A DNA stretch of 64,000 nt. It comes from an uncultured Bdellovibrionales bacterium. Its GTDB lineage: Bacteria; Patescibacteriota; Minisyncoccia; Moranbacterales; UBA1568. The notes under the pieces are model-generated. The model ran no database searches and was not told the DNA's origin. It saw only the letters and a program-made list of their open reading frames with translations. Shown one piece after another: positions 2,897 to 61,648 of this stretch. Both the position numbers and the translations under genes were made by a program. The stretch lies in the NCBI GenBank assembly GCA_964624415.1, contig CAZUWR010000001.1, positions 74,114 through 138,113 of the forward strand, read 5' to 3'. Position 1 is the first letter of the stretch, and every line of letters begins with the position of its first letter.

Positions 2897-3556
2897 ATGT
2901 CCAAGCATATCAGCACCGGGTTCGCCCTCACCCTCATCGCGCTCTTCGCCCTTGTCTTCGGAACGGTGTTTTGGTTGATGGGAAAACGGGATATCACCGA
3001 TGTACCGGTGGTACAGACAACGCAACCGATTTCGAGTGCGGTACAGCAAACCGACAAAGTCGTCTACGAAAACAAAGAGTTCGGATTTTCTCTGGAACTG
3101 CCGGCGAGTTGGACGGGGTATAAGATTTTTGAAGGAAAATCATTTGATTTGTATGACAAAAAACGATACGATAATAAACATTTTACTTTTCTCTTGCCAA
3201 CAACGGAAAAAGATTCAGGAGCATGGTTTTTTGGAAAGGATCTAAAAGAGTACGCATACTTTGCGCCTGTTATTTCTATCGATGTTATTCCCAAGGAGTA
3301 TTTTTTGAAAAATGAAAAAACCTGTGAAACGAATTTTGATCCTAAAAATATACAATTAAAACAATCTTATCCTGACTGCCTGCGATGGAAGTTGATTGGA
3401 GAGACTGAAAATTTCGTAGTACTTGCCGATAGAGTTGATGGCGGTCTTGCCGGAGATGAAAAATATGCGGACAAAATGCTAGCGATAAAGTCGACAAACG
3501 AAGATCCTTATGGATTTTTAGACTTTTTCAAAAAAAGTTTCAAGTTGCTCGGTTAG
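2897..3556 (+). CDS. Hypothetical membrane-anchored or secreted protein (paralog B)
   Basis: 219 aa. Same N-terminal anchor as 1843..2817 (ISTGFALTLIALFALVFGTVFWLMGKRDIT). Ends at TAG 3554-3556. Confidence 0.6.
   Translation: MSKHISTGFALTLIALFALVFGTVFWLMGKRDITDVPVVQTTQPISSAVQQTDKVVYENKEFGFSLELPASWTGYKIFEGKSFDLYDKKRYDNKHFTFLLPTTEKDSGAWFFGKDLKEYAYFAPVISIDVIPKEYFLKNEKTCETNFDPKNIQLKQSYPDCLRWKLIGETENFVVLADRVDGGLAGDEKYADKMLAIKSTNEDPYGFLDFFKKSFKLLG
2914..2988. repeat. About 75 bp signal-anchor repeat, copy 2
   Basis: See copy 1. Only a few mismatches over about 75 bp. Confidence 0.7.
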
Positions 3557-5775: not shown

Positions 5776-6333
5776 ATGGCAGAAAAATTCGACATCATTC
5801 TTATTGATGATGATGTTGAGCTCCGTAGTTTGTATGCGGAAGTATTTCGTAATGACGGGTTTGAAGTGCGCGAGGCGAATGATGGTCTGCAGGGTCTGGA
5901 AATGATCAATGACAAAACGCCCGACGTTATTTTTACGGGTATTATGATGCCGCGTATGGATGGTTTCACATTGGTGGAAACACTGAAAAAAAATGTTGCG
6001 ACCGCTTCGGTTCCGGTGGTACTGTTTTCTCACTTGGGACGCGAAGAAGATGAGAAACGTGCGGAGACGCTCGGGGTAAAGAAATTTATCGTCAAAGGGA
6101 TGGTATCGGTAAAGGATGTCGTCCGTATCGTCAAATCATTGTTAGTAAAGACTGTGGTCGAATACCATGTGTTTCTCGATCCACTTTCTTTGGATGCTCA
6201 GAAATTAGTTTTGGATTTCGGCCTCAATACGGACTTTTCGTGTGTCGAGAACGGAGGGAAAAAATGGGCACTCACGTTGACGGTCAAGGATACACATGCC
6301 CGTACGTTCGAGGCAAAGTTTACCTGCGTGTAG
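5776..6333 (+). CDS. Single-domain response regulator (CheY-like receiver) with a short C-terminal extension
   Basis: 185 aa. Receiver-domain pattern: acidic pocket DDD, phosphoacceptor Asp in DVIFTGIMMPRMDG, conserved K in KKFIVKG. No DNA-binding output domain recognised. Confidence 0.7.
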   Translation: MAEKFDIILIDDDVELRSLYAEVFRNDGFEVREANDGLQGLEMINDKTPDVIFTGIMMPRMDGFTLVETLKKNVATASVPVVLFSHLGREEDEKRAETLGVKKFIVKGMVSVKDVVRIVKSLLVKTVVEYHVFLDPLSLDAQKLVLDFGLNTDFSCVENGGKKWALTLTVKDTHARTFEAKFTCV

Positions 6334-6462
6334 CAACTGTTTAAAATATTTTTGTTTTTGGTTTTTGATAGTGTTTTTCGAACTGCCGGGTCAAAGACGA
6401 AAGGCGAGAAGAAATGCTATCAAAAGCCAAAAAAAAGAGTAAAAAAGATTTTAGACAATTGC
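6334..6462. repeat. Conserved intergenic module, copy 1 (about 90% identical to 25151-25278)
   Basis: aactgtttaaaa, then a T-rich stretch, then agtgtttttcgaactgccgggtcaaagacgaaaggcgagaagaaatgctatcaaaagccaaaaaaaagagtaaaaaagattttagacaatt. It lies between a + strand gene stop and the next + strand gene start. Confidence 0.65.
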
Positions 6463-6495
6463 TTAGCACCTTCTATTTTTTAAAGAAATGTGTGT

Positions 6496-8211
6496 ATGGC
6501 TGTATGGAAAGTGCAATCTGAGGCGGATGTGGAACATGAATCGGTAGGCGAGGGCAAGTTGCATCCTATTACCGCGGCCTTGCTGATGAAGCGCGGAGTG
6601 AAAGATGATGATTTAATGCAACGGTTTTTTACACCTGATTACGATAAAGATCTTCATGACCCATTTTTGTTTGTGCAGATGCCGATGGTTATCGAGCGTC
6701 TCCGCAAGGCCAAGGAAAACGACGAGCGCGTCGGCGTGTTTGGCGATTTTGACGTGGATGGGGTAACATCTTCAGCCTTGCTTCGGATGGTGCTTGGAGC
6801 ACTGGATATTCCTTGCTCTATCTATATTCCCGACAAAAATACCGAAGGGCACGGTTTGCATCTCAATGCGATCGAAGTATTCGCGCAAGAGGGCGTGACA
6901 CTTGTGATGACCACGGACTGCGGTATGACCAATGTCGAGCAAGTCGATGCCGCCAATGCGCGCGGGATGGATGTGATTATCATCGATCACCATCATGTCC
7001 CGGAAGTATTGCCAAAAGCGCACGCCATCATCAATGCGCAGATGAGTGATTCGGGCTACCCGTTCAAGGGACTGTGTGCCGTGGGGACGGTATTTAAGGT
7101 GGCGCAGGCCGTATACCATACCTTTTTGCCGGGTAAACTTGATCAATTGAAGTGGTTTTTGGATGTGGTTGCGGTTGGAACGGTAGCAGACTGTATGCCG
7201 CTCATCGATGAGAATCGCGTGATGGTGAAGTATGGATTGATTGTACTTTCCAAAACTCGTCGCATCGGTTTTCAGGAGATGTTTGCTGTCGGGAGGATTC
7301 CTATCGATGAAAATAACGTGCCCGATTCCCGGATGATCGGTTTTCAGATTGCGCCCCGTATCAATGCGGCGGGACGAATGGCACACGCCCAGGCGGCGCA
7401 TGAGCTTTTGATGTGTGAGGATCATTCTATCGCTCGCGGTCTGGCACTCGATATCGAGGCCAACAACGTCGCGCGTCAAAAAATTAGCACTCAGACGACC
7501 GACCAGGTGCGCAAGGTTGCCCAGCTGCAGTATGCTGACAAAAAATTCATCTTCGCGGTGAGCGAGCACTACCCGCTCGGCATTGTGGGACTGGTGGCGG
7601 GGCGTATCGCGCATGAGCTCAACAAACCGACGGCAGTCTTCCAGAAAGGCGAGCACGAAAGCCAAGGCTCATTCCGTAGTATTCCGTCTATCAATATCAT
7701 CGAGGCAATCGAGGAATGCGGAGATTTACTGGTGAAATTTGGCGGCCATGCGATGGCAGCGGGGTTGACGGTAAAGAATGAGCATATTGAAGCATTCTAT
7801 GAAAAGCTCAATGGCATTATCGAGAAAAAATTGGAGGGTATCGTCGTGGAGCCGGAAATCCTGATCGATATGAAACTCTCACCCTATCACATTACGCCGC
7901 AATTGGTGAGTGAGATCGGCAAAATGGCACCGTTCGGAGAAGGGAATCGCGAACCCGTCTTTTTACTGGAGAATATGAGCGTGCAGTCTGTACGGATGGT
8001 GGGTAATGGCAGCAAGCACCTCAAGCTCGCTTTGCGATCCGACGATGCCGAAGGGAGGACATTCGATGCTATCGGTTTCAGTCTCGGCGCGAAATTTCCT
8101 GATCTCGCTATCGGACAAAAACTCGATGTCGTCTTCGGTCTCGAAGCCAATGTTTGGAATGGCCGCACGACGACGCAGCTGAAACTGATCGATATGCGAT
8201 TGCGGGAGTAA
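6496..8211 (+). CDS. recJ: Single-stranded-DNA-specific exonuclease RecJ
   Basis: DHH family motifs (GDFDVDGVTS, IIIDHHH), DHHA1 region (GGHAMAAG) and a C-terminal OB-fold. Start placed at ATG 6496; the ORF track begins at a GTG at 6490. Confidence 0.9.
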   Translation: MAVWKVQSEADVEHESVGEGKLHPITAALLMKRGVKDDDLMQRFFTPDYDKDLHDPFLFVQMPMVIERLRKAKENDERVGVFGDFDVDGVTSSALLRMVLGALDIPCSIYIPDKNTEGHGLHLNAIEVFAQEGVTLVMTTDCGMTNVEQVDAANARGMDVIIIDHHHVPEVLPKAHAIINAQMSDSGYPFKGLCAVGTVFKVAQAVYHTFLPGKLDQLKWFLDVVAVGTVADCMPLIDENRVMVKYGLIVLSKTRRIGFQEMFAVGRIPIDENNVPDSRMIGFQIAPRINAAGRMAHAQAAHELLMCEDHSIARGLALDIEANNVARQKISTQTTDQVRKVAQLQYADKKFIFAVSEHYPLGIVGLVAGRIAHELNKPTAVFQKGEHESQGSFRSIPSINIIEAIEECGDLLVKFGGHAMAAGLTVKNEHIEAFYEKLNGIIEKKLEGIVVEPEILIDMKLSPYHITPQLVSEIGKMAPFGEGNREPVFLLENMSVQSVRMVGNGSKHLKLALRSDDAEGRTFDAIGFSLGAKFPDLAIGQKLDVVFGLEANVWNGRTTTQLKLIDMRLRE

Positions 8212-8261
8212 GCAGGATTTATGTATACTGTAATCAAATATAATTTTTTATCATAAAGACT

Positions 8262-8576
8262 ATGAAGCCAGGCGAATACAATCAGATACCAAGCAATGAA
8301 ATGCCGAAGGCGGCAGAAGACACTATGAAAGCACCTTTTGAGATAGAGGACAGAGAGGCCGAAATTGCCTTGGCCAAGAAAGAATTTGACGATTATATGC
8401 AAAAGTTATGCGCTGCGGAAGATGACCCCGAGGTAATAGTGGATTGTTTGCGTGAAGCGAAAGACGCGGCTTTTCAGATAGGAAAATATAAGCTGATGGC
8501 GATGTTTGATGACGAAATAGAAAAACGGGAAACGACGGATGAGGATGAAGAAGATCTTGAAGAGGCTGTAGCTTGA
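8262..8576 (+). CDS. Hypothetical acidic protein
   Basis: 104 aa, very acidic C-terminus. No recognised domain. Confidence 0.4.
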   Translation: MKPGEYNQIPSNEMPKAAEDTMKAPFEIEDREAEIALAKKEFDDYMQKLCAAEDDPEVIVDCLREAKDAAFQIGKYKLMAMFDDEIEKRETTDEDEEDLEEAVA

Positions 8577-8619
8577 AAACGCTCATAATCATGAAGCTGA
8601 ATTTAGTAAAAAAATCAGT

Positions 8620-8982
8620 ATGCTAGGACATGAATCACCATTTGAAACACAGGAAATGCTGGAACAGAAGCAAGAACAGCAGTTGGCCTTGCTTTTAAAA
8701 GAAAAAGGATTGGATGATCCCGAGGCGCACACAGCTCTTAACGAGTGGATTGCCCAACAGGAGCAGTGGGCTGATAATTCCGAGAATTCTTTAGACGCAC
8801 GTATAGAAGTGGATCTCCGGACGGCACGATTATATCTGAAAGCCGGTCTTTTGGATGATGTGTGGGACAACTTCGAATATGCCAAAGCACAAGCATGGAG
8901 TCGGCACAATTTAAGGGAGCGAGATTCTCTTTATCAAGCCATTGTAAAGGAAGTGGAACAAATAGAGGAATTTTTTCAGTAG
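8620..8982 (+). CDS. Hypothetical protein
   Basis: 120 aa, Gln/Glu-rich. No recognised domain. Confidence 0.4.
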   Translation: MLGHESPFETQEMLEQKQEQQLALLLKEKGLDDPEAHTALNEWIAQQEQWADNSENSLDARIEVDLRTARLYLKAGLLDDVWDNFEYAKAQAWSRHNLRERDSLYQAIVKEVEQIEEFFQ

Positions 8983-9000
8983 GAGTATATTTTATATTTT

Positions 9001-9576
9001 ATGAAAACACGAAAATGTATCATCATTCATGGGTGTTTTCCGGATGCAAAGCAGGTGATGGATCCACAAGGAGAGTTGTATCAGAGATACTGGGCATCCT
9101 GGATCGAAAAAGAACTCGTTGCAAAAGGTGTCGAGACTTGTGTGCCTCGGATGCCTGAGCCGTCGCAACCTAACTACGAACGCTTCAAAGCGGATTTCGA
9201 AAAGCTGACCGTCGATGATGATACTGTGCTTGTGGGTCATAGCTGTGGCTGCGCTTTCTTGACGCGCTGGCTCGGTGAAACCAAACAGAAAGTAGCGAAA
9301 CTCGTTTTTGTCGCGCCATGGAATGTTGCCAAGGAAGATGATACAGTGAGGCAGGCATTTTATCAGTATACGATCGACACAAATATCAAAGACCGGGTCA
9401 GCGAAATCGTTATGTTTACCGCGGATAATGAATCAAAGCCCGGCAAGAAAAGCCTCCAAATACTCCATGATGCGCTCGGTGGCGAAATCATTGATCTTTC
9501 TGGCCGAGGCCACTACCTGATAGACGATATGAAAACCGCGGAGTTTCCCGAATTGCTAGAGGTGATTGTGCGCTAA
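9001..9576 (+). CDS. Alpha/beta serine hydrolase, YdeN/RBBP9-like (Ser_hydrolase family)
   Basis: 191 aa. Nucleophile elbow GHSCG, about 190 aa, with downstream Asp/His positions typical of the family. Confidence 0.65.
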   Translation: MKTRKCIIIHGCFPDAKQVMDPQGELYQRYWASWIEKELVAKGVETCVPRMPEPSQPNYERFKADFEKLTVDDDTVLVGHSCGCAFLTRWLGETKQKVAKLVFVAPWNVAKEDDTVRQAFYQYTIDTNIKDRVSEIVMFTADNESKPGKKSLQILHDALGGEIIDLSGRGHYLIDDMKTAEFPELLEVIVR

Positions 9577-9666
9577 CCGCACAGCGATATTTCGGTGATG
9601 AAAAAACGTGTTTACTTCGTATTCACTCTTTGGTATACTGAAAGAGTAAACCATTTTTCAAACTCT

Positions 9667-10521
9667 ATGGACAATGAAGCATCACTGGCTATTTTTGAAA
9701 ACTTTAAAATACGCAGGCATTACGACGAAACATCGGAAACGTGGTTTTTTTCGGTGATAGATATCGTGGCGGTTCTAACTGAACAAGAGGATTATGCCAA
9801 AGCAAAAAGCTACTGGACAACGTTGAAAAATCGCTTAAAAAATGAAGGCAGTGAAGTGGTCACAAAATGTGACCGGTTGAAAGTGCTGGCAGTAGACGGA
9901 AAAATGCGTGAAACAGATATGGCGAATGTGGAGGTTTTGTTGCGTCTTATCCAATCCGTACCGAGTAAGAAAGCCGAACCGATAAAGCTCTGGTTGGCAA
10001 AAGTCGGATATGAGCGGATGCAAGAGATGTCCGACCCGGAAAGAGCCCTGAACCGATCGAGGGAATACTGGCAGAAGCAAGGACGGAGCGAAAAGTGGAT
10101 ACAACAAAGAATGACCGGGCAAGAAACCAGAAATAAACTGACGGATTATTGGAGCGAACACAATGTCAAAAAAGGTGATGAGTTTGCTATCCTGACTAAT
10201 ATCATCCACGAGGAATGGAGTGATTTGTCTATCAAAAATCATAAAAACCTCAAGGGGCTCAAAACGCAGAATCTCCGCGATCATATGAGCGAAGAAGAGC
10301 TCATCTTTACCGCGTTAGCGGAAGTATCGACACGCCGGATCGCCGAGATGGACAAAGCGGTCGGTTTGGAGGAAAATAAAGTGCCGGCAAAGAAAGGCGG
10401 AAAAATCGCGAGGGACGCTCGTATCGCCCTTGAGGAAAGGTTGGGGAAAAGCGTGATTACGGGGGATAATTTTTTATTGAAAGCGAAAGGTGAGAATAAG
10501 AAACTCAGAAATATACAATAA
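9667..10521 (+). CDS. DNA-damage-inducible protein D-like (Bro-N domain plus DinD-like C-terminal region)
   Basis: N-terminal FENFKIRRHYDETSETWFFSVIDIVAVL fits the Bro-N pattern, as in E. coli DinD (EEIRHYGTEGQEFWSARELA). The start is placed at Met25 of the track ORF (MDNEAS...). Confidence 0.55.
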   Translation: MDNEASLAIFENFKIRRHYDETSETWFFSVIDIVAVLTEQEDYAKAKSYWTTLKNRLKNEGSEVVTKCDRLKVLAVDGKMRETDMANVEVLLRLIQSVPSKKAEPIKLWLAKVGYERMQEMSDPERALNRSREYWQKQGRSEKWIQQRMTGQETRNKLTDYWSEHNVKKGDEFAILTNIIHEEWSDLSIKNHKNLKGLKTQNLRDHMSEEELIFTALAEVSTRRIAEMDKAVGLEENKVPAKKGGKIARDARIALEERLGKSVITGDNFLLKAKGENKKLRNIQ

Positions 10522-10537
10522 ATTATTAGCATACGCT

Positions 10538-11065
10538 ATGTCAAAAGAACTGAATATACTATTTGAAGAAGCAGTGCGTCTCTTGGTTGAACATATGCCG
10601 ATTTCGCAAGATGATAGCAGGAAGCCAATTTTATTTCACGATATTCGCGTCGGCGTGTATTTGTATGAGCATGGCTATGCGCAGGACATTGTGCTGGCAG
10701 GAGTACTGCATGATGCCTTGGAGTGGTCTGGAATGACCGAGCAGATGTTACAAGAAACATTTGGCGATAACGTAGTCAGATTGGTTTTGGCGAGCACAAA
10801 AGACGATTCGATTGAAGACAAGATTGAAAAAACAAACGAACTTATCAAGCGTTGTATTCAAAACGGACAGGATGCTTTGATTGTGAAAGTCGCTGATATA
10901 CTCGATAGTTTCAAGTGGTATTCGAGTCAAAACAATGAGGGTGAACTTCGATACTGTATGAGGAATGCCAATGCTATTTTTACATTCAAGCCGGATGAGT
11001 TTGAGGATAAGATATTCGATGAATTAAAAAGTTGGCAGGATACATATTCGCACTTGACTGATTAG
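10538..11065 (+). CDS. HD-domain metal-dependent phosphohydrolase
   Basis: HD motif residues (LFHDIRV ... VLHDALEW ... KVADIL). 176 aa. The start is the ATG 17 bp after the stop of the previous gene. Confidence 0.65.
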   Translation: MSKELNILFEEAVRLLVEHMPISQDDSRKPILFHDIRVGVYLYEHGYAQDIVLAGVLHDALEWSGMTEQMLQETFGDNVVRLVLASTKDDSIEDKIEKTNELIKRCIQNGQDALIVKVADILDSFKWYSSQNNEGELRYCMRNANAIFTFKPDEFEDKIFDELKSWQDTYSHLTD

Positions 11066-11068
11066 ATC

Positions 11069-12682
11069 ATGACCCAAAAAGAAGCACTCGACATTTTGAA
11101 GACGGGCGTCAATGTTTTTTTGACGGGAGAGCCTGGCGCAGGGAAGACGCATACCATCAATCAGTATGTGGCATATTTGCGTTCGCATGGCATCGAGCCA
11201 GCCATTACCGCATCGACCGGCATCGCAGCGACGCATATCCATGGGATGACACTGCATTCGTGGAGTGGAGTGGGTGTGGCGCGCGATTTGAGCGATGATG
11301 ATGTGGCGGATATCGCCAAGAGCCGATATATCTCCGGCCGTATCAAAAAAACCAAAGTCCTGATACTTGACGAGGTCTCGATGATCGATAGCGAGACGCT
11401 TTCCAATGTTGAGCGTATCTGTCGCCGGGTTAAAAAATCCGCACAGCCTTTCGGTGGGATGCAGGTGGTTTTCGTGGGGGATTTTTTTCAGTTGCCTCCG
11501 GTGAGTAAGGGCGGCGCTCAGTCGGTCTTTTCGTTTTCGTCCGCAGCGTGGCGGATGATGCGACCGACCGTGTGCTATCTGACCGAGCAGCATCGACAGG
11601 AAGACGCGAAGTTTTTGAGTATTCTTTCAGCGATGCGTCGGGATGAATTTGGCGAGCAGCACTTTGAGCAAATGCGTTCGTGTCTGCTTACGGTAGATGA
11701 GTTGCCCAACGATGTGACGAGGCTTTTCTCCCACAATGCCGATGTCGATACTATCAATACGAAAGAGCTGCGGAAGCTCGAGGGTAAGACGCGTTCGTTT
11801 CTGATGGCGGATAGGGGTCCTGAGAGGCTGGTGGAGGCGCTCAAGCGCGGCTGCCTTTCTCCGGAGCGCCTCGAGCTCAAGGAGGGCTCTGCGGTGATGT
11901 TTACCAAGAATAATCCCAATGCGGGATTTGTGAACGGGACGCTGGGCACGGTTATCGGATTCGATGATGAGAGCCGCTGCCCGGTGGTGATGCTGCGCGA
12001 TGAGACGGTACTGGTGGTCAAGCCGATGGAGTGGGCGATAGAAGAGCAGGGCGAAGTGTTGGCACGCATTATGCAGATACCTTTGCGCTTGGCATGGGCG
12101 ATCACTATTCACAAGAGCCAGGGGATGAGTATGGATGCGGCGGTGATGGATCTGTCCAAGACCTTCGAATTCGGGCAGGGCTATGTGGCGCTTTCCCGGG
12201 TGCGGACTTTGGCGGGCGTGCACCTCTTGGGTGTAAGCGAGCAAGCCTTTCGAGTCAGTCCGGAAATACTGGAGCAAGACATCTCTTTTCGCGAGCAATC
12301 GCTGATGATAGAGGATGAGTACGCGCACTTGGCACAGAAGGATCTTTTGAAACGGCAGAAGGATTTCGTGAAACTGTGCGGTGGTCGATGGGAGGATGTA
12401 CACGATGTTTTGGCTGGAAAAGTAAAAAAAGAGGAGCATCCTCTCAAAAAAGCAAAAAAATCCGCGAGGACCACAGAGGAAAAAGAAGCGTATATGAAAT
12501 CCATAGAAGATCTTCGTATCAAACACGCCCAAGCGTACAAGAAGTGGGACGCGCCGGAAGAAAAACGCCTCACCGCATTGTTTCACGAAAACATCCCGCT
12601 TCCGGAAATCGCAGAAACGCTCGGCCGTCAGATAGGCGGTATCCGATCACGATTGAAAAAGCTCGGACTTTTGGGAGAGTGA
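11069..12682 (+). CDS. pif1: Pif1/RecD-family ATP-dependent DNA helicase with a C-terminal HTH
   Basis: Walker A GEPGAGKTH, Pif1 signature region, helicase motifs (DEVSMID, QSQG-like HKSQGMS), and a C-terminal sigma-70 region-4-like HTH (LPEIAETLGRQIGGIRSRLKKLG). Starts 4 bp after the HD gene. Confidence 0.85.
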   Translation: MTQKEALDILKTGVNVFLTGEPGAGKTHTINQYVAYLRSHGIEPAITASTGIAATHIHGMTLHSWSGVGVARDLSDDDVADIAKSRYISGRIKKTKVLILDEVSMIDSETLSNVERICRRVKKSAQPFGGMQVVFVGDFFQLPPVSKGGAQSVFSFSSAAWRMMRPTVCYLTEQHRQEDAKFLSILSAMRRDEFGEQHFEQMRSCLLTVDELPNDVTRLFSHNADVDTINTKELRKLEGKTRSFLMADRGPERLVEALKRGCLSPERLELKEGSAVMFTKNNPNAGFVNGTLGTVIGFDDESRCPVVMLRDETVLVVKPMEWAIEEQGEVLARIMQIPLRLAWAITIHKSQGMSMDAAVMDLSKTFEFGQGYVALSRVRTLAGVHLLGVSEQAFRVSPEILEQDISFREQSLMIEDEYAHLAQKDLLKRQKDFVKLCGGRWEDVHDVLAGKVKKEEHPLKKAKKSARTTEEKEAYMKSIEDLRIKHAQAYKKWDAPEEKRLTALFHENIPLPEIAETLGRQIGGIRSRLKKLGLLGE

Positions 12683-12706
12683 TATAAAATTTTTTATGGA
12701 TATGAA

Positions 12707-12741
12707 ATAAGCCCGACAAATTCTATTTGCAGGGCTTATTA
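12707..12741. terminator. Probable bidirectional terminator hairpin between convergent genes
   Basis: taagccc ... gggctta stem of 7 bp with a 17 nt loop, AT-rich flanks. Lies between the pif1 stop and the stop of 12766..13233 (-). Coordinates approximate. Confidence 0.4.
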
Positions 12742-12765
12742 AAAACTATTTTTATGGAACATCTT

Positions 12766-13233
12766 TTATGTTGTCGCCTCGGTATTTTTCGCGATCTCTT
12801 TGAGTACTCCGATCATTTCCCTGAGAATAATACTGAAATTATTCATGGGAGCTAACGAAACTTTATCCGCTGCGGCTATTTTCAATCCCAGTGGTGTTAT
12901 AAAGGGAGCCGGAGTCGCTGAAAAAATTTGTATCGGTTGTGTTACCCAAATGTGCCATTCGGGTGATTTGGTACTCCTGTGATCAATAATAAACTCTCGC
13001 AAGAATTCCTCGAATCTTCTTTGATAATTTTCCGCTTCATTCAGAGTGCTGAAGTATTGGATGCGAAAAATTTTTCCGAATCTCCGGAAGGAATCATTTT
13101 TGGTGTAGGCCATACTTATTTGTATCGTATAGGGCGGGTCATCTTCATTATGCGGTACGAGTGATGGCCAGGTATCATCTGTATTGTTTTGTGTGTGCAT
13201 GATAGCACCTCTTTGCAGTATTGTTAAAGACAT
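12766..13233 (-). CDS. Hypothetical protein
   Basis: 155 aa, no recognised domain. An alternative start is at the internal MHTQNN. Confidence 0.4.
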   Translation of the reverse strand: MSLTILQRGAIMHTQNNTDDTWPSLVPHNEDDPPYTIQISMAYTKNDSFRRFGKIFRIQYFSTLNEAENYQRRFEEFLREFIIDHRSTKSPEWHIWVTQPIQIFSATPAPFITPLGLKIAAADKVSLAPMNNFSIILREMIGVLKEIAKNTEATT

Positions 13234-24595: not shown

Positions 24596-25150
24596 ATGAA
24601 ACAACGAAAGATATTTTTAGGCGTGTCGATTCCGCGGGATGTCTCGAAGCGGTTGGCACGAAAGATGGAGCAGTGGCAGGATTTGCCATTTCGTTTCACC
24701 AAAGAAGGTAATATGCATATTACCTTGCTTTTTTTGGGGCACGTGCTGGATGAATCGGTTGCCAAAATCTGTTTGCAGGTAGAGGAAGTTTGTCGGAATA
24801 TACAGGCTTTCGATGTTGACCTCAATACAATCACGCTCGTACCGGAGCAGGGGATGAACGCTAAGCAATTGTGGTTTATGGGCGAGGCAAATGAAGAGTT
24901 GCGGCAGCTTCGCGTCGCACTGGAAAAAGAGCTCTCTATGTTCAGCTCCGAGAAGAAAGTATTCCGCCCTCATGTGACACTTGGCCGCGTACGGCAAAAC
25001 CTCTGGCAGGAGCTGCCGCAGATTCCGGAAATGAATGACAGTCTTTCGGTATTCCTTCCGATCGATAGTGTCATTGTCTATGAAAGCGTCTTTCAAAAAG
25101 GGGAGGGCCTAGCCTATGAAGTGCTTGCCGAATGCCCCCTTGTTTATTAG
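24596..25150 (+). CDS. thpR: RNA 2',3'-cyclic phosphodiesterase (2'-5' RNA ligase family, ThpR/LigT)
   Basis: Two H-x-T-x motifs (HITLLFLG and HVTLGRV) in a protein of about 180 aa. Confidence 0.8.
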   Translation: MKQRKIFLGVSIPRDVSKRLARKMEQWQDLPFRFTKEGNMHITLLFLGHVLDESVAKICLQVEEVCRNIQAFDVDLNTITLVPEQGMNAKQLWFMGEANEELRQLRVALEKELSMFSSEKKVFRPHVTLGRVRQNLWQELPQIPEMNDSLSVFLPIDSVIVYESVFQKGEGLAYEVLAECPLVY

Positions 25151-25278
25151 TAACTGTTTAAAAGCTTTTCGTTTTTTGCTTTTGTATAGTGTTTTTTCGA
25201 ACTGCCGGGTCAAAGACGAAAGGCGAGAAAAAATACTATCAAAAGCCAAAAAACAAGAGTAAAAAGATTTTAAACAGT
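25151..25278. repeat. Conserved intergenic module, copy 2
   Basis: taactgtttaaaa, T-rich stretch, agtgttttttcgaactgccgggtcaaagacgaaaggcgagaaaaaatactatcaaaagccaaaaaacaagagtaaaaagattttaaacagtt. Lies between the thpR stop and the glycosyltransferase start. Confidence 0.65.
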
Positions 25279-25290
25279 TATTTGGGAGCT

Positions 25291-26061
25291 ATGATTTCAA
25301 GTAGCCTTATTTTCAATACGCGTGTGGATAATCTTGCCAAGCAGGATATTTTTCATACCGTTGATACTTTTTTAACAAGCGAGCAATTTCATCAGATCGC
25401 GACGGTCAATCCGGAGTTTCTTTTACTGGCTCGAAAAGACGCTGCCTTTCGAGCGGTTCTAAATGCCTGTGAATTGAATGTGGCGGACGGGGTCGGCATA
25501 CACCTCGCTTTGTGGCGGCAAGGAAAACGCTTGCGCGCTCGTGTGACGGGCGTGGATCTAATGGCATATATTTTACAACAGGCGGAGCGTAACGATCTGA
25601 CCGTGATGTGTGTGCTGCGCAAAGATGGTTTGAGTGTATGGAAAGATGTCCGTCGTGCGATCAAACAGCAGTATCCGAAACTGCGTGTCGAGGGTATCAA
25701 TAGCGATCCCTCTCTGTGTCATCCCGCACTTACTTATACAAGTCATCCTGAGCTTGCCGAAGGATCCCGTACTTTTACGGATGCATTACACAACTCACAC
25801 ATAGTCCTCTGTAATTTCGGTGCGCCACACCAAGAGTTTTTCCTAGCCGGATTGCGGAACCATACAGGTGCTCTTCGAGTAGCGATGGGTGTTGGCGGAA
25901 GCTTTGATTTCTTGACGGGAAAAATAAAGCGCGCACCGAAGTGGATGCGTGCGGCGGGATTGGAGTGGCTCTGGCGATTGCTTCTGCAACCCAGGCGATT
26001 CAAGAGAATATGGAATGCTGTTATCGTCTTTCCTTTACGAGTGATCCTTGGAATACAATAA
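25291..26061 (+). CDS. WecB/TagA/CpsF-family glycosyltransferase (N-acetylmannosaminyltransferase-like)
   Basis: Family signature (IATVNPEFLL, LNACELNVADGVGI, C-terminal WLWRLLLQPRRFKRIW). The start is at ATG 25291; the track ORF begins earlier at a GTG inside the repeat. Confidence 0.8.
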   Translation: MISSSLIFNTRVDNLAKQDIFHTVDTFLTSEQFHQIATVNPEFLLLARKDAAFRAVLNACELNVADGVGIHLALWRQGKRLRARVTGVDLMAYILQQAERNDLTVMCVLRKDGLSVWKDVRRAIKQQYPKLRVEGINSDPSLCHPALTYTSHPELAEGSRTFTDALHNSHIVLCNFGAPHQEFFLAGLRNHTGALRVAMGVGGSFDFLTGKIKRAPKWMRAAGLEWLWRLLLQPRRFKRIWNAVIVFPLRVILGIQ

Positions 26062-29579: not shown

Positions 29580-30268
29580 AAAACATAGACTGTCTCGATT
29601 TCTTTCTCACTCCCTTACATCAAGTGAATCTTTAGGGAGTCTCCTCTGTGCTTTTGCGCCAGCATAAGCAGACCTTCTGTTCTTCGATTGCTCTCTGCGT
29701 GATTTGCTTCATCTTTCAATCCATTGTCATGATTTAAGGCTTATAAGAGGCATAAAAGAGCCAAAAAACGCTCGGGAAACGACCCATTTTAATGGCTTGT
29801 TTAAGCCTCAATATGACGCTTAAAATTGACTTGTGCGGGGCTTTATATTCAAAATGGTATAGGTATACCATCGATATGGCTACAAATTGATGTACATGAA
29901 AGGATGCAGCGCATATTAAAAGTTGAGACCCTATTTTTATGGCACAATAGGAGAGACGATTTCTAGGAGTGGAGGATAGTTATTTCATGTATCACAATTT
30001 CTTTGATAAGAATTAAGCATCAGTACGAATGTGTATTGTATGTAAACAGAAACGTTCAAAAGTACACATACAAAATAAATCTTTTTTAGGCGCATTTATA
30101 TAAGGCAAGGAGAAGGAAGTCCTGAGAAGATACTATGCTTATCATCGAGCATATCTTCAGGCGGTCTGTACAAAATACTATCAGTATAAAGTATCCAAAG
30201 GACTTATTTTCTTGTGTTATGTCGCATAAGTTACATTATGCGACACTGTAAATAAATCCATTTGAAGC

Positions 30269-30310
30269 AAATAATAGACCTAGCAAAAAGATTATATTTG
30301 CTAGGTCTTT
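30269..30310. terminator. Perfect 12 bp palindromic hairpin AGACCTAGCAAA-9 nt-TTTGCTAGGTCT followed by a T-rich tract
   Basis: Seen directly in the sequence. Lies in the ORF-free 1 kb region. Could terminate a + strand sRNA or the minus-strand small ORF upstream of it. Confidence 0.45.
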
Positions 30311-30349
30311 CTTATGCGTATGCTTTATCCTCAACTTTCTATAATGATT

Positions 30350-30472
30350 TTACCAAATTCCAGCAGGAATATCTGTTGTAATATTTGCCAATGCGTTAGG
30401 AAAAAACATTGCAACAAAAATCAAACCCGCCGTTAACCACTCGTACACTTTATACAAAAATTGTACTGACAT
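30350..30472 (-). CDS. Candidate 40 aa hydrophobic small protein
   Basis: AGGAG-N6-ATG ribosome-binding site on the minus strand. Translation: MSVQFLYKVYEWLTAGLIFVAMFFPNALANITTDIPAGIW. Coordinates approximate to within 2 bp. Confidence 0.3.
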   Translation of the reverse strand: MSVQFLYKVYEWLTAGLIFVAMFFPNALANITTDIPAGIW

Positions 30473-30636
30473 TTTTAACTCCTATCTTTATACATTGTCG
30501 TTAAGTCATCCTGTATCGGACACGTGTATCATACACCTATTCTATAAGATTGTCCAGTCTTTCTTGTCATTACTTTCAAAAGCGAAGAATTTACGAAAAA
30601 TCCACTACACTGTTTTGATAAGTAAATTAAATTTTA

Positions 30637-44997: not shown

Positions 44998-46890
44998 CTA
45001 CACATCCATCGCCTTGAGGATACGGTCGAGCTTGGCGGTGGCGACACCTACCACACTGTCTCCTCCGCCGTAGTACATATAGATTGTACCACCGCGATTG
45101 ACGACGCCGCATGGGAACACCACTTTGTTCACCTGTCCCATTTTTTCGTACTCCATCTCTGGTTCGAAGATAGCATCCGTAGTACGCGCGAGGATAATAG
45201 TAGGGTCTTTGAGCTGCAAGAGCACCGCGCCTACCCGGTAAGTGCTGTTGTCTGAAACACCATGATAGAACAGGAGCCAGCCTTTTTTGGTTTTAATAGG
45301 AGGGGCGGCGATGCCGACTTTGGCACTGTCCCACATCCCGTGTCGTGGTCCGACGATCGGCGTGAAACTTTCCACCTTGTCCACGGCGAAGTTGAGCGAT
45401 TTGACCGCGTCAAGGCAAATATGATTGTGAGCGCGATGAAAAACTAAGTAGTGTCCATGGATTTTCTCGGGAAAAAGACAGGCGTCTTTGTTGTCGATAC
45501 CCTCGGGCGTCACCAGTTTCGGCTCCGTCCAATTCCAGTCCAATCGCAAGAAATCCTTGACCGCGATACTGGTCGCAGCGACCACTGGTGGGTTATTCCC
45601 ATCGTAAGCGGTATAGAACATGTACAGTGTATCGTCTATCTGCGTGATACGAGGATCCTCGCATCCTGAATTGCCCGGGTGCGATTTCATCTCAAATCCC
45701 TGGCGGGGGGTGTAGATCGGTTGATTGAGTCTTTCGGTAATATCAAGACCGTTTTTGGAAACCGCATAGCCCATCACCGAAGTGTCATCCGTACCCATCG
45801 CGCGGTACACGATATATATCTTCCCTTTGATTTCCACTGCGGCCGGATTAAAAACCGCCTTATTCTCCCAGGCATTCGCTTCGAGAGGCAATAGAATAGG
45901 ATTGTTGCGGCTGCGCGTGAATATCGGTTCTTTGTGGATGCTATAGAGCAGATCATCCAGATCGACACTGGCTCGACAGCCAGTCGTATCCGTCGCTCCA
46001 TAATAGATAAACAATTTTTTGCCGGCGATAAAAGCACCTGAAGGGAAAATGACATTTGGTACCTGTCCGAATTCCTCATACGTTTCCTCGGGCACCAAGA
46101 GCGGTCCGGATGTGCGAGCGATGATTTTTTTTGGATCATTCAGATCCAAGAGCAGTGCCTCAATACCAAAAATCTTGTGCTCACTGAAATAGTTTTGGAT
46201 ATGCGAATATACCAAGAGCCAACCGTCTTTGGTTTTGATCGGTGCGGCGCCTATCTCCACATGATCGCTGTCACAGCGGCGCAAATCGATACGATGATCA
46301 TCGATGTGCTCATGCCACTTCTGCCAGTACTCGGGTGACCACATTTCTTCGAGCGTGTCGAAATAAGCGAACGCAGTGACAACCGGCGGCTCATCTGTAT
46401 GCGCGCTCAGCATCGCCACATATTTCCCGTTAATCTTCTCCGGGAACAAAGTCATGGCCTTAGCATTGAACGGCGTGACCAAGTGTTTTTCGTCTATCTT
46501 CTTAAAATCCTTGGTCGTAGCTACAGCAATTTTGATGCCGGGAGCCGCAAACGGAAAAACGGAAAGTGCGGTATAGAAAATATAGTAGGTGTCCCCTATC
46601 TTGGTGACACGAGGATCCTCACAGCCAAACTGCTCCCATTCGAATTCCGGCGCGATGAGTTGTCGGCGCTTTTCATAATGATGCCCGTCGATACTCTCGG
46701 TGTAGCCGATAGAGGAAATGCGAAGCTCTTGTTTGTGAACATACTTCACATCCGAAACCGCTCGATACACGGAGTGCACTTTGTTCTTATCCTGTATCGG
46801 GCACCAGTTGAAGGCTCCGAACGACTCCCAAGCGTGATCAGAAATAGGCTTGAGAAGCGGATTGTGAGTGGATCGTCGTATAACCAGCAT
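44998..46890 (-). CDS. Tandem GH130-domain protein (two beta-mannoside phosphorylase/glycosidase-like modules)
   Basis: Two repeats of the GH130 (formerly DUF377) signature (GCEDPRVTKIGDTYYIFYTA, GCEDPRITQIDDTLYMFYTAYDG). 630 aa. Confidence 0.7.
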   Translation of the reverse strand: MLVIRRSTHNPLLKPISDHAWESFGAFNWCPIQDKNKVHSVYRAVSDVKYVHKQELRISSIGYTESIDGHHYEKRRQLIAPEFEWEQFGCEDPRVTKIGDTYYIFYTALSVFPFAAPGIKIAVATTKDFKKIDEKHLVTPFNAKAMTLFPEKINGKYVAMLSAHTDEPPVVTAFAYFDTLEEMWSPEYWQKWHEHIDDHRIDLRRCDSDHVEIGAAPIKTKDGWLLVYSHIQNYFSEHKIFGIEALLLDLNDPKKIIARTSGPLLVPEETYEEFGQVPNVIFPSGAFIAGKKLFIYYGATDTTGCRASVDLDDLLYSIHKEPIFTRSRNNPILLPLEANAWENKAVFNPAAVEIKGKIYIVYRAMGTDDTSVMGYAVSKNGLDITERLNQPIYTPRQGFEMKSHPGNSGCEDPRITQIDDTLYMFYTAYDGNNPPVVAATSIAVKDFLRLDWNWTEPKLVTPEGIDNKDACLFPEKIHGHYLVFHRAHNHICLDAVKSLNFAVDKVESFTPIVGPRHGMWDSAKVGIAAPPIKTKKGWLLFYHGVSDNSTYRVGAVLLQLKDPTIILARTTDAIFEPEMEYEKMGQVNKVVFPCGVVNRGGTIYMYYGGGDSVVGVATAKLDRILKAMDV

Positions 46891-46891
46891 A

Positions 46892-48754
46892 TTATTGATG
46901 TTTTGGTATATTAATTTTTTTCACGCGTGCAGGCTTATTGGCCTGATGCTCGATATGCGTGGTCACATCCCCGAGGAATTCATCAATATTCTCCGTCGCG
47001 ACGCACACCACACTATCGGCTCCGCCGTAGTATACGAACAAGGTATCCTCTTTGATGACCGCTCCGCACACATACACCACGCCGGATTTGGCACCGTGAT
47101 TCTCGTAGTGAGCGTTCGGCTCCAAGATAGGATAATTGCAGCGGTGCAAAATCTTGGTCGGATCGTTTTGATCCAAAATCATCGCACCCACTTTGTACTT
47201 ATTCGGATCACGCTTATCCATCGCATGATACAGCACCAGCCAACCGTATTTAGTCTTGATCGGCGGCGCACCTGCTCCGCGCATAATATTGTCCCAGCGA
47301 TGATCATCTTTGCCTGGCATCTTCATACTTTCGATGACTATCTTTTCATCATCCAAAGTGTCGAGGTATTCGATGGAAATCTTCGGCGTGATACTGTGCA
47401 AAACAGCGTACTTGCCATTCACCTTCTCCGGGAAAATCATCCAGTTCTTTTGGATTTCCCCGGGTTTGGAAATGAGCACCGGCTTTTTCCAATTCCATTC
47501 TTTATTCAAAAAATCCTCCACGCTAATCGAGGTCAATGCCACGCCCGGTGCATTGTATCCGTCGAAAAGCACATAGGTCATATAGATACGATCACCGATA
47601 TGCGTGATACGCGGATCCTCGCACCCTGCCCAGCTGCCGCCCGATACATACGGCGAGTTCTTAGCGCCTTCGCGATTGCTCTTGGTTGGATTCCACAACG
47701 TAAACACCGGCTGATCCAATCGCTCATCGATAGTCACACCGTCACGCGACGAGGCATAGCCAAGCACTGACACACCGTTTTCCCCGATGGCGCGATAGAG
47801 CAAGTGAATCTTGCCATCCAGATGCAGTGCGGCCGGATTGAAGGTGGCCTCTTTCTCCCACTGGCTCTCTATCTTCGGTTCGATGATCGGATTGCTGTGA
47901 TGCCGCTTGAGCTGCTTGATGATTTTGGCGCGTACCAATCCCGATGAAACGAGATGTATAGTCTTGAGGAATATCTCGTTGTCAGCATTCGCCCAATAGA
48001 TATGCAAAGAATGCTCAACGATAACCGCTCCCAAGAATCGATCCGGGATATGCGTTTCATCCACCACCTCTTCCCAAATAGGATCGTCCGATCGCCACAG
48101 AGGCGCGAGATACGGCTTGTCCATAGAAAACAACGCGGCTCCAACAACGATGTCCGCCCCGCCTTTTTTGCCGCGTCCCGAAGTATACAACACCAAAATT
48201 CCCTGCTCAATGATAAGCGTTCCGATGACGTGCAGTGCGCCTGCATCGAAATGCCCCTTGCGTGGCGACAGCACTTCACCGGAAGCATGCCAAGAAGTAA
48301 GATCGCTCGAAGCAGCCACAAATACATCGGTATCGCCATAGTAGGAAAGAAATCTTTTTTTGTGTTTGTAACTGGAAACAATAAGCGAGGCCTTATGCGA
48401 TAGATCGATATCGTTTTCCACGACGGTGAAATGGATCATATCCTCCGAATGCGCCATTATCGTACACTTTTTTCCACGCACCGTGCGCACGTACATCACA
48501 TAGTAGTCTTTGTTATGCGTAAAAAAAGACAGAGCATCGCATCCTGCGAGTGACTCCGCCTTGCCGTCTTTCCCTAAAATCTCAAGCTCATACCCCTGGG
48601 CGAATGCTACTCCATCCGTGCTCTGCGAGACAAACAAGCGCATCTTTCTGGCAATTTTGACGCCATACACCACCAAGACGCGCTTATTGTGCGTCGTCAC
48701 CGAAAGTGGGTATACGATCGCGTCTTCGTGTGTCAATGTCGTCTTGCTTGCCAT
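46892..48754 (-). CDS. Tandem GH130-domain protein, paralog of 44998..46890
   Basis: GCEDPRITHIGDRIYMTYVLFDG and a second GH130-like module. 620 aa. Its stop is 2 bp from the start of the next gene. Confidence 0.7.
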   Translation of the reverse strand: MASKTTLTHEDAIVYPLSVTTHNKRVLVVYGVKIARKMRLFVSQSTDGVAFAQGYELEILGKDGKAESLAGCDALSFFTHNKDYYVMYVRTVRGKKCTIMAHSEDMIHFTVVENDIDLSHKASLIVSSYKHKKRFLSYYGDTDVFVAASSDLTSWHASGEVLSPRKGHFDAGALHVIGTLIIEQGILVLYTSGRGKKGGADIVVGAALFSMDKPYLAPLWRSDDPIWEEVVDETHIPDRFLGAVIVEHSLHIYWANADNEIFLKTIHLVSSGLVRAKIIKQLKRHHSNPIIEPKIESQWEKEATFNPAALHLDGKIHLLYRAIGENGVSVLGYASSRDGVTIDERLDQPVFTLWNPTKSNREGAKNSPYVSGGSWAGCEDPRITHIGDRIYMTYVLFDGYNAPGVALTSISVEDFLNKEWNWKKPVLISKPGEIQKNWMIFPEKVNGKYAVLHSITPKISIEYLDTLDDEKIVIESMKMPGKDDHRWDNIMRGAGAPPIKTKYGWLVLYHAMDKRDPNKYKVGAMILDQNDPTKILHRCNYPILEPNAHYENHGAKSGVVYVCGAVIKEDTLFVYYGGADSVVCVATENIDEFLGDVTTHIEHQANKPARVKKINIPKHQ

Positions 48755-56750: not shown

Positions 56751-57113
56751 ATGAAAACAAGAGACTTAGCGTCAGCAGTAAGAAACCTTCGAATAAAGTC
56801 TGGTATATCCCCTGCTAAATTGGCGGAGCGATCAGAACTTTCTTCGGCGTACATTTCCAAATTGGAAAGCGGTCAGTACAAAACAATCACATTGACTACT
56901 TCAAGAGCTCTTGCGGTAGGACTAGGACTCACTCTCAAGGATTTTCTTGAGAAGATTGGGTTTTTAGAAAAACAGGATACATATAATCCGTTAAACCAAA
57001 ATTCCGCCAACCAGTTGATCGCAAATGCCCTTCGGGGAAATGGCTACACCGACCAGCAAGCACGGGACATTGTGAATTATGCCAAATATATCAAATCCAC
57101 AGACAAGCGATAA
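56751..57113 (+). CDS. XRE-family HTH transcriptional regulator (ImmR/cI-like repressor)
   Basis: Cro/C1-type HTH (LRIKSGISPAKLAERSELSSAYISKLESGQ), about 120 aa. Paired with the ImmA-like protease downstream. Confidence 0.7.
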   Translation: MKTRDLASAVRNLRIKSGISPAKLAERSELSSAYISKLESGQYKTITLTTSRALAVGLGLTLKDFLEKIGFLEKQDTYNPLNQNSANQLIANALRGNGYTDQQARDIVNYAKYIKSTDKR

Positions 57114-57798
57114 CGACCTTGATCATGAAGATGTTTCTCTTGAGGTTCTTGAATTTCAACAGAAAAAAGGCTACGTAGCACTACTCGAACAACTTACGCT
57201 ACACTTTCAAAAACTTGTTTATGATATTTTCCAAAAATACCCTAGCGAAATAACATTCCCTATTGATACAATGCCAATGGAGCATTTTTTGCTCGGGTTT
57301 GAAATCGAGTATCTATCCATAGAGGAACTTATAGAAAATGATCTCATCCCGCACTTTTGCAATCCCTTTGATCTAAAGGGATCTCATTCAAGCCCTCATT
57401 CCATAGAGGGTTTTTGGTTTTCCGATGATAAAACAAATAAAGTTTATATTTTCATAAACACATCATCCAACGCCAAGCGTCAGATGTTTACTAAAATACA
57501 CGAGCTTTTTCACTTTTGCCAAAGTCTTGATCCAGCCTTTAATGACTTTCTCACTGAAATCATCAATGAATCAACACTCCCGAAAAAATACATAAGAAAT
57601 CTTATAGAAAGAAGTGCAAACAAGGCCACGGCCATGTACTTGATACCCGAAACACATTTGCAACAAGCGTATAAAGAGACTCAAGACATTGCGGAATTGG
57701 CGCTATTGTATGGTGTTTCGCAAGATACTCTCAGAATACGACTGGAAGAGTGCAATTTAATCCGTAATCAAAATGATATTTTTGATGTTCCATTTTAA
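57079..57798 (+). CDS. ImmA/IrrE-family zinc metallopeptidase (anti-repressor protease, DUF955/M78)
   Basis: HEXXH motif HELFHF in the context IFINTSSNAKRQMFTKIHELFHFCQ. Overlaps the XRE gene by 35 nt. This is the typical ImmR-ImmA pairing of mobile elements. Confidence 0.7.
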   Translation: MPNISNPQTSDNDLDHEDVSLEVLEFQQKKGYVALLEQLTLHFQKLVYDIFQKYPSEITFPIDTMPMEHFLLGFEIEYLSIEELIENDLIPHFCNPFDLKGSHSSPHSIEGFWFSDDKTNKVYIFINTSSNAKRQMFTKIHELFHFCQSLDPAFNDFLTEIINESTLPKKYIRNLIERSANKATAMYLIPETHLQQAYKETQDIAELALLYGVSQDTLRIRLEECNLIRNQNDIFDVPF

Positions 57799-57916
57799 AA
57801 AACACAAAAATCCTGCGCTTCAACACAGGACTTTTGGCTAAACCAACGCGAGTAAACACATTGATCAGGGCAATTTCAATGTAACATATCCGAAATCGTA
57901 AAGCAAGGATATTGGC

Positions 57917-57950
57917 TCGCGCATGGATAGACGCGAGCTTTTATGTATTC
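57917..57950. other. GC-rich hairpin GCTCGCG-N10-CGCGAGC upstream of rep: candidate nick site or double-strand origin, or a terminator
   Basis: Perfect 7 bp inverted repeat followed by TTTTATG, about 160 nt upstream of the Rep_trans start codon. Coordinates approximate. Confidence 0.3.
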
Positions 57951-58106
57951 ACCCGACATATCCACAAAAGGCCTCGCAAAGGCTCTCAATCTAGGCAAAG
58001 ATGAAGTTTTTGAAGCTAGCTTCAACTTGCTTACATTTTTTGAAACATTGCACAGAATTGACGAGCGCTTGCAAACGGAGAAAAACGGAAAGGAGGCTAA
58101 CTCTGT

Positions 58107-59258: not shown

Positions 59259-59318
59259 TCGAGATATGATGATATTGTATTACTCAAATATACCTCCCAA
59301 ATATGAACACCCATCATT

Positions 59319-59519
59319 ATGAAAAATAGCACAAGGAAACAAGGAGAAGAAAAAGAATTTTACCTCGTCGAAGAGGTTGCCGAAAAATTGAGGGTATCAA
59401 AAATGACCGTGTATCGATATATCAAGGCAAGTAAGCTCAATGCCTACAAAATCGGCAAAGAGTTTCGTATCAGAAAAAGCGACCTCGACAGTTTCCTTTC
59501 ACAAGTAAGTACACAATAA
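59319..59519 (+). CDS. Excisionase/MerR-like HTH_17 DNA-binding protein (Xis-like)
   Basis: 66 aa. LVEEVAEKLRVSKMTVYRYIKASKLNAYKIGKEFRIRKSDLDSFL matches the HTH_17 pattern. Confidence 0.6.
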   Translation: MKNSTRKQGEEKEFYLVEEVAEKLRVSKMTVYRYIKASKLNAYKIGKEFRIRKSDLDSFLSQVSTQ

Positions 59520-59523
59520 TTTT

Positions 59524-61647: not shown

Positions 61648-61648
61648 T

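Follow-up and report, generated by a model that had tools for sequence, protein, structure and literature searches.

Why does the same sequence of about 130 bp stand, in almost identical form, before two unrelated genes of one bacterium? This question is raised by the window analysed here, i.e., the whole stretch of 64,000 nucleotides. The GltX, PriA and RecJ proteins encoded in the window assign it to Candidatus Moraniibacteriota (Patescibacteria/CPR). Among reference genomes, GCA_028711705.1 is the closest (82% identity for GltX, 77% for PriA and 84% for RecJ), and the organism of the window is also present in the Logan assemblies of run SRR12487045. The genomes of CPR/Patescibacteria are small and streamlined. 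To our knowledge, little has been reported about their mobile repeats, and text searches of the literature found no description of MITEs in this group.

Extent, surroundings and ends of the two copies

Copy 1 of the element (6334..6461, 128 nt, + strand) lies between a response-regulator gene (5776..6333, + strand), whose orthologues have a PF00072 domain and adjoin recJ, and recJ itself (6496..8211, + strand; protein P0121, 571 aa, 100% identical). Copy 2 (25151..25280, 130 nt, + strand) is separated from it by 18.8 kb and lies between a LigT-like 2'-5' RNA ligase gene (24596..25150, + strand; orthologues with PF02834) and a WecG/TagA-type glycosyltransferase gene (25291..26061, + strand), the start codon of which is backed by homologues. 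The covariance-model scores of the two copies are 131.5 and 159.3 bits, respectively.

An earlier note, written from the letters of this DNA alone, had reported two near-identical copies with a shared core of about 95 nt at more than 90% identity. The copies are indeed found where it had placed them. They are identical at 116 of 131 positions (88.5%) in a global alignment of 6334-6461 with 25151-25280, and the inner core of about 95 nt (6368-6461 against 25185-25280) reaches 90.7%. A chance similarity is ruled out, since a 30-mer taken from the core has exactly two occurrences in the window versus none in 100 shuffles. A local segmental duplication that included coding sequence is also ruled out, since the flanking proteins are unrelated and the similarity stops at the inverted repeats described below. 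The upstream proteins, a response regulator and a LigT-like protein of about 185 aa each, show no similarity to each other (BLASTP E = 0.18), and the downstream ones are RecJ and a WecG-type glycosyltransferase, so that the coding flanks are as unrelated as had been stated. The earlier note had itself held out the alternative of a pair of copies, the only ones to exist, generated by a duplication that took in the coding flanks; this agrees neither with the unrelated flanks nor with the further copies found since.

In both copies, the left edge directly follows the TAG that ends the upstream gene (6331-6333 for copy 1 and 25148-25150 for copy 2). Both begin with (C/T)AACTGTTTAAAA, followed by a T-rich tract, which bears out the start immediately after a stop codon that had been noticed at first sight. 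The distance to the next gene of the + strand had been put at about 25 nt for both copies; it is actually 34 nt from copy 1 to the ATG of recJ (6496) and 10 nt from copy 2 to the ATG of the WecG-type gene (25291). A Shine-Dalgarno-like motif, GGGAG, is present between the right flank of copy 2 and this latter ATG.

Each of the window copies lies within an ORF of 48 codons. An encoded peptide is ruled out, since these ORFs start in the unrelated flanks and are absent from the other copies; besides, a 1-nt indel between the window copies shifts the reading frame. At copy 2, a mechanically called ORF with a GTG start (25189-26061) passes through the element and lengthens the glycosyltransferase gene by 34 false codons. 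The suspicion that the ORF caller had been misled at this place was correct, since the alignment with the orthologues of the glycosyltransferase (245-256 aa) begins no earlier than the ATG at 25291. Judged from its sequence, the element is a non-coding, hairpin-forming dispersed repeat.

The members of the family measure 128-131 bp, and each copy carries terminal inverted repeats of 13-14 bp with the general form (T/C)AACTGTYTAAAAT ... ATTTTARACARTT(A/G). The left end reads (T/C)AACTGTTTAAAA(T/G) and the right end is its reverse complement, ATTTTARACARTT(A/G). In copy 1, the left repeat is located at 6334..6347 (+ strand; CAACTGTTTAAAAT) and the right one at 6448..6461 (- strand; ATTTTAGACAATTG on the + strand). 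In the same way, copy 2 is bounded by repeats at 25151..25164 (+ strand; TAACTGTTTAAAAG) and 25267..25280 (- strand; ATTTTAAACAGTTA on the + strand). Ends of this type are found four times in the window versus 0.72 expected by chance. The first base of copy 1, a C, pairs with its last base, a G, which is a compensatory difference from the T...A found elsewhere in the family. The predicted hairpin has a GC-rich tip that contains a small nested stem-loop (6385..6405 in copy 1, + strand; GCCGGGTCAAAGACGAAAGGC) and that is identical in copy 2 (25204..25224, + strand).

A dispersed family and its empty sites

Copies in metagenomes were located with an exact 21-mer from the tip, a search by which more diverged copies would be missed and which makes the tip of all metagenome copies invariant by construction. 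This 21-mer matched six metagenome contigs. Five of them, all from sample Ga0265297 (L001, L002, L004, L005 and L006), carry full or partial copies with 83-92% identity, and the terminal inverted repeats are also conserved in L001, L004 and L006. The sixth contig, L003, was rejected as a copy, the 21-mer being here a chance match within unrelated GC-rich DNA. The Ga0265297 contigs share only the element with the window or with one another.

A third copy belonging to the organism of the window is found at the end of the Logan contig L099. The protein that flanks the element in L001 has an orthologue with 92% identity in the organism of the window, encoded by L099, and the insertion in L099 is at the same nucleotide as in L001; the contig ends 45 nt into the element (L099:10288-10332). 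Another Logan contig of the same organism, L087, ends about 17 nt past copy 1, at about position 6478 of the window. That L087 and L099 stop at or inside copies is the behaviour expected of a repeat in short-read assemblies. When L001 and L099 are counted as one, seven distinct sites are known (the two of the window, L001/L099, L002, L004, L005 and L006), all with different flanks. Three copies are thus present in the organism of the window and five in a relative seen in one metagenome (Ga0265297). The family is dispersed and not locally duplicated.

The copy of L005 (L005:2263-2383, - strand) is devoid of the right inverted repeat. The ATG of the downstream gene, which encodes a protein of 334 aa, is fused to the interior of the element (AAGAGTATG), so that the element is now the immediate 5' region of this gene.

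Searches with an nhmmer profile and a covariance model revealed no further diverged copies in the window and no copy at all in about 1.6 Mb of related Moraniibacteriota/CPR DNA. An exact 23-mer from the core gave 0 matches in 185,579 species genomes and in IMG/VR, and blastn found no match to the element among plasmid and phage sequences.

At three sites, the element is absent from relatives that have the same gene order. At the first site, the adjacency of the response-regulator gene and recJ is kept in five related lineages (L092-L097; RecJ identity of 83-88%), where the spacers of 24, 46, 88 and 116 nt are unrelated to the element. The spacer of the window, once the element is subtracted, measures about 29-34 nt and falls within the range of these relatives. 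At the second site, between the LigT-like and the WecG-type genes, L007 and L089 read TAT TAG CTT ATG, i.e., a spacer of 3 nt, and L088 has an unrelated spacer of 82 nt. At the third site, downstream of a YgaP-like gene, an ordinary terminator stands in place of the element in L100, a more distant relative. These empty sites, joined to the lack of copies in the CPR DNA, genomes, IMG/VR, plasmids and phages searched, suggest that the family originated in a narrow lineage, or was acquired by it, and was inserted at these sites.

One spacer of the first site, in the relative whose RecJ is 88% identical (L092:3942-3987), contains CTTTTAAACAGAC; a run of 10 bases in it (TTTTAAACAG) is also found in the right inverted repeat of the element. 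This may be a chance match or the remnant of a lost copy.

Several of the characters by which MITEs are recognised are found in this family: it is small (below about 500 bp) and non-coding, it is bounded by terminal inverted repeats, its copies are dispersed, and relatives have empty sites. The element is therefore probably a lineage-restricted, MITE-like, non-autonomous mobile element of Candidatus Moraniibacteriota, with pairing along its whole length. The family itself is previously undescribed and the kind of element, a MITE, is familiar. Bacterial MITEs, such as Nezha from cyanobacteria or RUP from Streptococcus pneumoniae, are AT-rich elements of about 100-150 bp that depend on a transposase encoded elsewhere. 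The family described here resembles them by its small size, its non-coding and AT-rich sequence, its terminal inverted repeats, its long hairpin, its intergenic dispersal and its absence from orthologous sites. However, it shows no sequence similarity to any known element (in Rfam, plasmids, phages, species genomes and IMG/VR), its host is a CPR bacterium, and its flanks resemble nT(T/A)AG whereas TA-type families give TA.

As for Nezha and RUP, a transposase encoded elsewhere would act on the inverted repeats and insert the copies. The targets would be short and AT-rich, following the pattern nT(T/A)AG, and in the window both of them would coincide in part with the TAG that ends the upstream gene. 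Each insertion would probably have duplicated 3-5 bp. The left flank of copy 1, TGTAG (6329..6333, + strand), contains the native TAG stop of the upstream gene; this flank may be the target or the duplication partner of the right flank, CTTAG (6462..6466, + strand), a candidate target-site duplication that matches the left flank at three of five bases. For copy 2, the left flank is ATTAG (25146..25150, + strand), in which the LigT-like gene has its native TAG stop, and the right flank is TTTGG (25281..25285, + strand), a candidate target-site duplication that would have decayed. The stop codons at the left ends of both window sites are native, as the relatives have them too; for example, the relatives end the response-regulator gene with ...GTGTAG.

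A perfect direct repeat flanks the copy of L001 (ATAAG/TAAC...GTTA/ATAAG), whereas the flanks of the other copies match at two or three of five bases. On the whole, the two flanks of the same copy match at 3.2 of five bases versus 2.8 for flanks taken from different copies, and only L001 offers copy-specific evidence. On both sides, the flanks of the various copies follow a consensus like nT(T/A)AG; what is seen is thus a shared consensus, such as target-specific insertion would produce, rather than a clean copy-specific duplication. A model with a 3-bp T-W-A duplication and ends GYAAC...GTTRC fits about equally well. A duplication of TA only, of the IS630 type, is disfavoured: in copy 1, C...G replaces the outermost T...A on both sides, so that these outermost positions are to be counted with the inverted repeat rather than with a duplicated TA.

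A Pfam scan of 47 window ORFs identified no transposase, no RAYT (Y1) and no integrase. Neither the window nor about 1.6 Mb of related loci yielded a longer element with the same (T/C)AACTGTCTAAAAT ends. Inverted pairs of repeat-like ends located 60-5000 bp apart correspond to the known copies and to two other pairs, which is about the level expected by chance.

As the evidence stands, the element is of a common kind, although its host is unusual. A MITE-like family located within operons has practical consequences, since it breaks short-read assemblies and misleads ORF callers; it also provides a ready marker for the tracking of strains or lineages.

A predicted RNA hairpin between co-oriented genes

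The predicted fold runs from end to end: the T-rich 5' arm pairs with the A-rich 3' arm over about 47 bp, and the GC-rich tip closes the hairpin. For the + strand, the predicted RNA fold has an energy of -42.6 kcal/mol (z = -5.2) versus -29.1 kcal/mol (z = -2.8) for the - strand, and for copy 1 the minimum free energies are -46.8 and -31.6 kcal/mol, respectively. The fold of the - strand is weaker because many of the pairs are G.U on the + strand. The comparison of structure and covariation between copies that the earlier note had recommended supports a hairpin over the whole length. In the five full copies, standard pairs occupy 96.6% of the pair cells versus 47-57% when the partners are slid, and compensatory changes affect four pairs. 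The covariation score is 0.153 versus 0.121 in shuffles, the observed value being reached by 10 of the 500 shuffles.

Such a hairpin raises the possibility, although not a likely one, that the element, whatever its origin, is now a cis-acting RNA module retained by its host. Within a polycistronic mRNA, it would be a processing site for RNase III/E, a stabiliser of the mRNA or a means of uncoupling cistrons. The retention of the pairing, with its four compensatory pairs, is in keeping with this, as is the better folding of the + strand in five out of five full copies, by 2.5-15 kcal/mol. G.U pairs also exceed C.A mismatches (27 cells in 15 columns versus six cells in five columns; binomial P of about 0.02-0.08), but these G.U cells are not independent events, since much of the excess is inherited from the consensus of the family. 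Five of the seven copies lie between co-oriented genes and share their direction, and the next start codon follows after 0-34 nt. However, this bias is not significant (P = 0.23), the copies of L004 and L006 being antisense. Furthermore, at each of the three sites examined, close relatives lack the element.

The insertion shared by L001 and L099 also bears on the matter. These two copies have a derived base in common (ACT-A-TCTA) and each is the nearest copy of the other (38/41), which indicates that they represent one inherited insertion. The visible part of the element and the 15-nt spacer are identical at 53 of 56 positions, whereas identity in the flanking genes ranges over 78-90% (82% overall; P of about 0.006); for the 41 bases of the element alone, the comparison is 38/41 with flanks at 82% (P of about 0.05). 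A copy that is better conserved than its coding flanks is not predicted for a purely selfish, decaying element and would rather be expected of a module kept by its host, but this test is based on 41-56 nt. No insertion polymorphism was seen within one species. As the L001/L099 insertion is, in addition, common to organisms whose flanks are 82% identical, the family may be old and no longer mobile.

A more far-reaching proposal can be made from these observations: the family would predate the split of two Moraniibacteriota species and purifying selection would since have maintained it as a strand-specific RNA hairpin located within operons, i.e., as a domesticated module for the processing or stability of mRNA in a reduced CPR genome. 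This proposal is put forward as a speculative one and is more doubtful than the simple retention of an RNA module. If the hint of constraint holds, a mobile hairpin would have been recruited for control at the mRNA level in an organism for which very few regulators are known, and a domesticated RNA module of this type would be the first such repeat family described in CPR.

Under the preferred reading, i.e., a MITE-like mobile element, an RNA hairpin could still be formed. Most copies are embedded in series of genes that read the same way, with the next start 0-34 nt away, and are therefore probably co-transcribed with them. Once co-transcribed, they might fold as a long RNA hairpin that would be tolerated by the host or perhaps even used by it, e.g., as a site of processing or stability. 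The Correia elements of Neisseria (CREE/NEMIS) behave in a comparable manner: they are foldback elements adjacent to genes and co-transcribed with them, whose RNA hairpin can be processed and can alter the expression of neighbouring genes. Like them, the element is a small foldback with terminal inverted repeats beside genes, and they offer the best functional analogy for a reading at the RNA level. However, the sequence of the inverted repeats is unrelated, no sign of outward promoters or of an IHF site is seen in the present element, and the copy number seen here is far lower.

Other repeat types and other features of the window

Among its options, the earlier note had named a REP-like repeat and a miniature mobile element. 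A dispersed mobile repeat of this sort is supported by the further copies with unrelated flanks, the sharp ends and the empty sites. REP/REPIN elements, which are mobilised by RAYT, have several features in common with the family: they are extragenic, hairpin-forming and lineage-specific, and their folding is strand-asymmetric. If the element were REPIN-like, its two inverted halves would form a hairpin in single-stranded DNA and would be moved by a Y1 transposase (RAYT/IS200-type) without target duplication. The whole element is indeed a hairpin of about 130 nt, the strand asymmetry of its folding holds with DNA parameters too, every copy is strictly extragenic, and a clear copy-specific target duplication is absent in four of five copies. 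However, the arms, being T-rich or A-rich, cannot fold on themselves and pair only with each other, so that REP-type palindromic units, the defining feature of these elements, do not occur at the ends. In addition, there is no conserved GTAG-type head and no RAYT or other Y1 transposase among the window ORFs scanned, at least one copy (L001) has a perfect flanking direct repeat, and the density of copies is modest (three in about 75 kb of genome seen). A REPIN-like origin is therefore improbable.

The attC sites of integrons, such as the Vibrio cholerae repeats, are also imperfect palindromes of about 60-140 bp that follow an ORF, occur as similar copies and have AAC...GTT near their ends. However, copy 2 has TAGTAAC at its left end and GTTATTT at its right end, to be compared with RYYYAAC and GTTRRRY, so that only AAC/GTT and one further position fit. 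Furthermore, the copies described here lie between housekeeping genes of conserved order and not in a cassette array, and no integrase is encoded by the scanned window ORFs. As the core motifs and the array context are missing, the identification as an attC site was rejected.

The weakest reading, a terminator plus promoter-leader cassette as in the earlier note, or an independent small-RNA gene, fits the strong predicted structure and the position of both window copies right after a stop codon and shortly before the next start, but it is very improbable: no U-tract or T-run follows the hairpin and neither copy contains a terminator-like site, the only promoter-like matches are weak ones that overlap the boundaries of copy 1 and have no counterpart in copy 2, two of the seven copies are antisense, the same junctions exist in relatives without the element, and no Rfam family is matched. 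A small-RNA element in general may still be envisaged, although the copies showed no signal of independent transcription. An intrinsic terminator was rejected in its own right, since the combination of a GC-rich stem and a U-tract is found in neither copy. As regards Rfam, the whole window gave 0 matches at gathering thresholds. The best matches below the thresholds are to generic miRNA hairpin models and score far too low (e.g., 35 bits versus a threshold of 83 bits), so that a known RNA family is ruled out at Rfam thresholds.

The window contains other repeated sequences. Two adjacent genes without Pfam match (1843-2817 and 2897-3556) carry, near their 5' ends, a repeat of 114 nt with 88% identity (1858-1971 and 2912-3025), and these genes are probably tandem paralogues. 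Two adjacent paralogues of the - strand (44998-46890 and 46892-48754) encode GH130 proteins of about 620-630 aa, similar to mannooligosaccharide phosphorylases, and this pair explains several families of short direct repeats in the window.

A region of about 1 kb (29580-30636) has neither an ORF of at least 70 aa nor an Rfam match at E <= 0.01. Within it, positions 30213-30254 are 93% identical to L007:13519-13561, in surroundings that cannot be aligned, and could correspond to a small conserved non-coding feature.

Downstream of copy 1, the region 6496-13233 differs in organisation from that of relatives (L088-L090 and L093-L097). The RecJ-PIF1 and PriA-Def-Fmt-rhodanese blocks adjoin in the window, in opposite orientation and with a junction at about 12.7-13.3 kb, whereas the relatives hold them at separate places or on different contigs, which suggests a rearrangement in the lineage of the window.

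Near the end of the window, a cluster (57079-63013) encodes an IrrE/Peptidase_M78-like protein (57079-57798), a Phage_CRI protein (G2P-like, rolling-circle replication; 58107-59258), a fusion protein with HSDR_N and N6_Mtase domains (59524-61647) and a Methylase_S specificity subunit (61592-63013). This cluster looks like an integrated mobile element or a defence islet.
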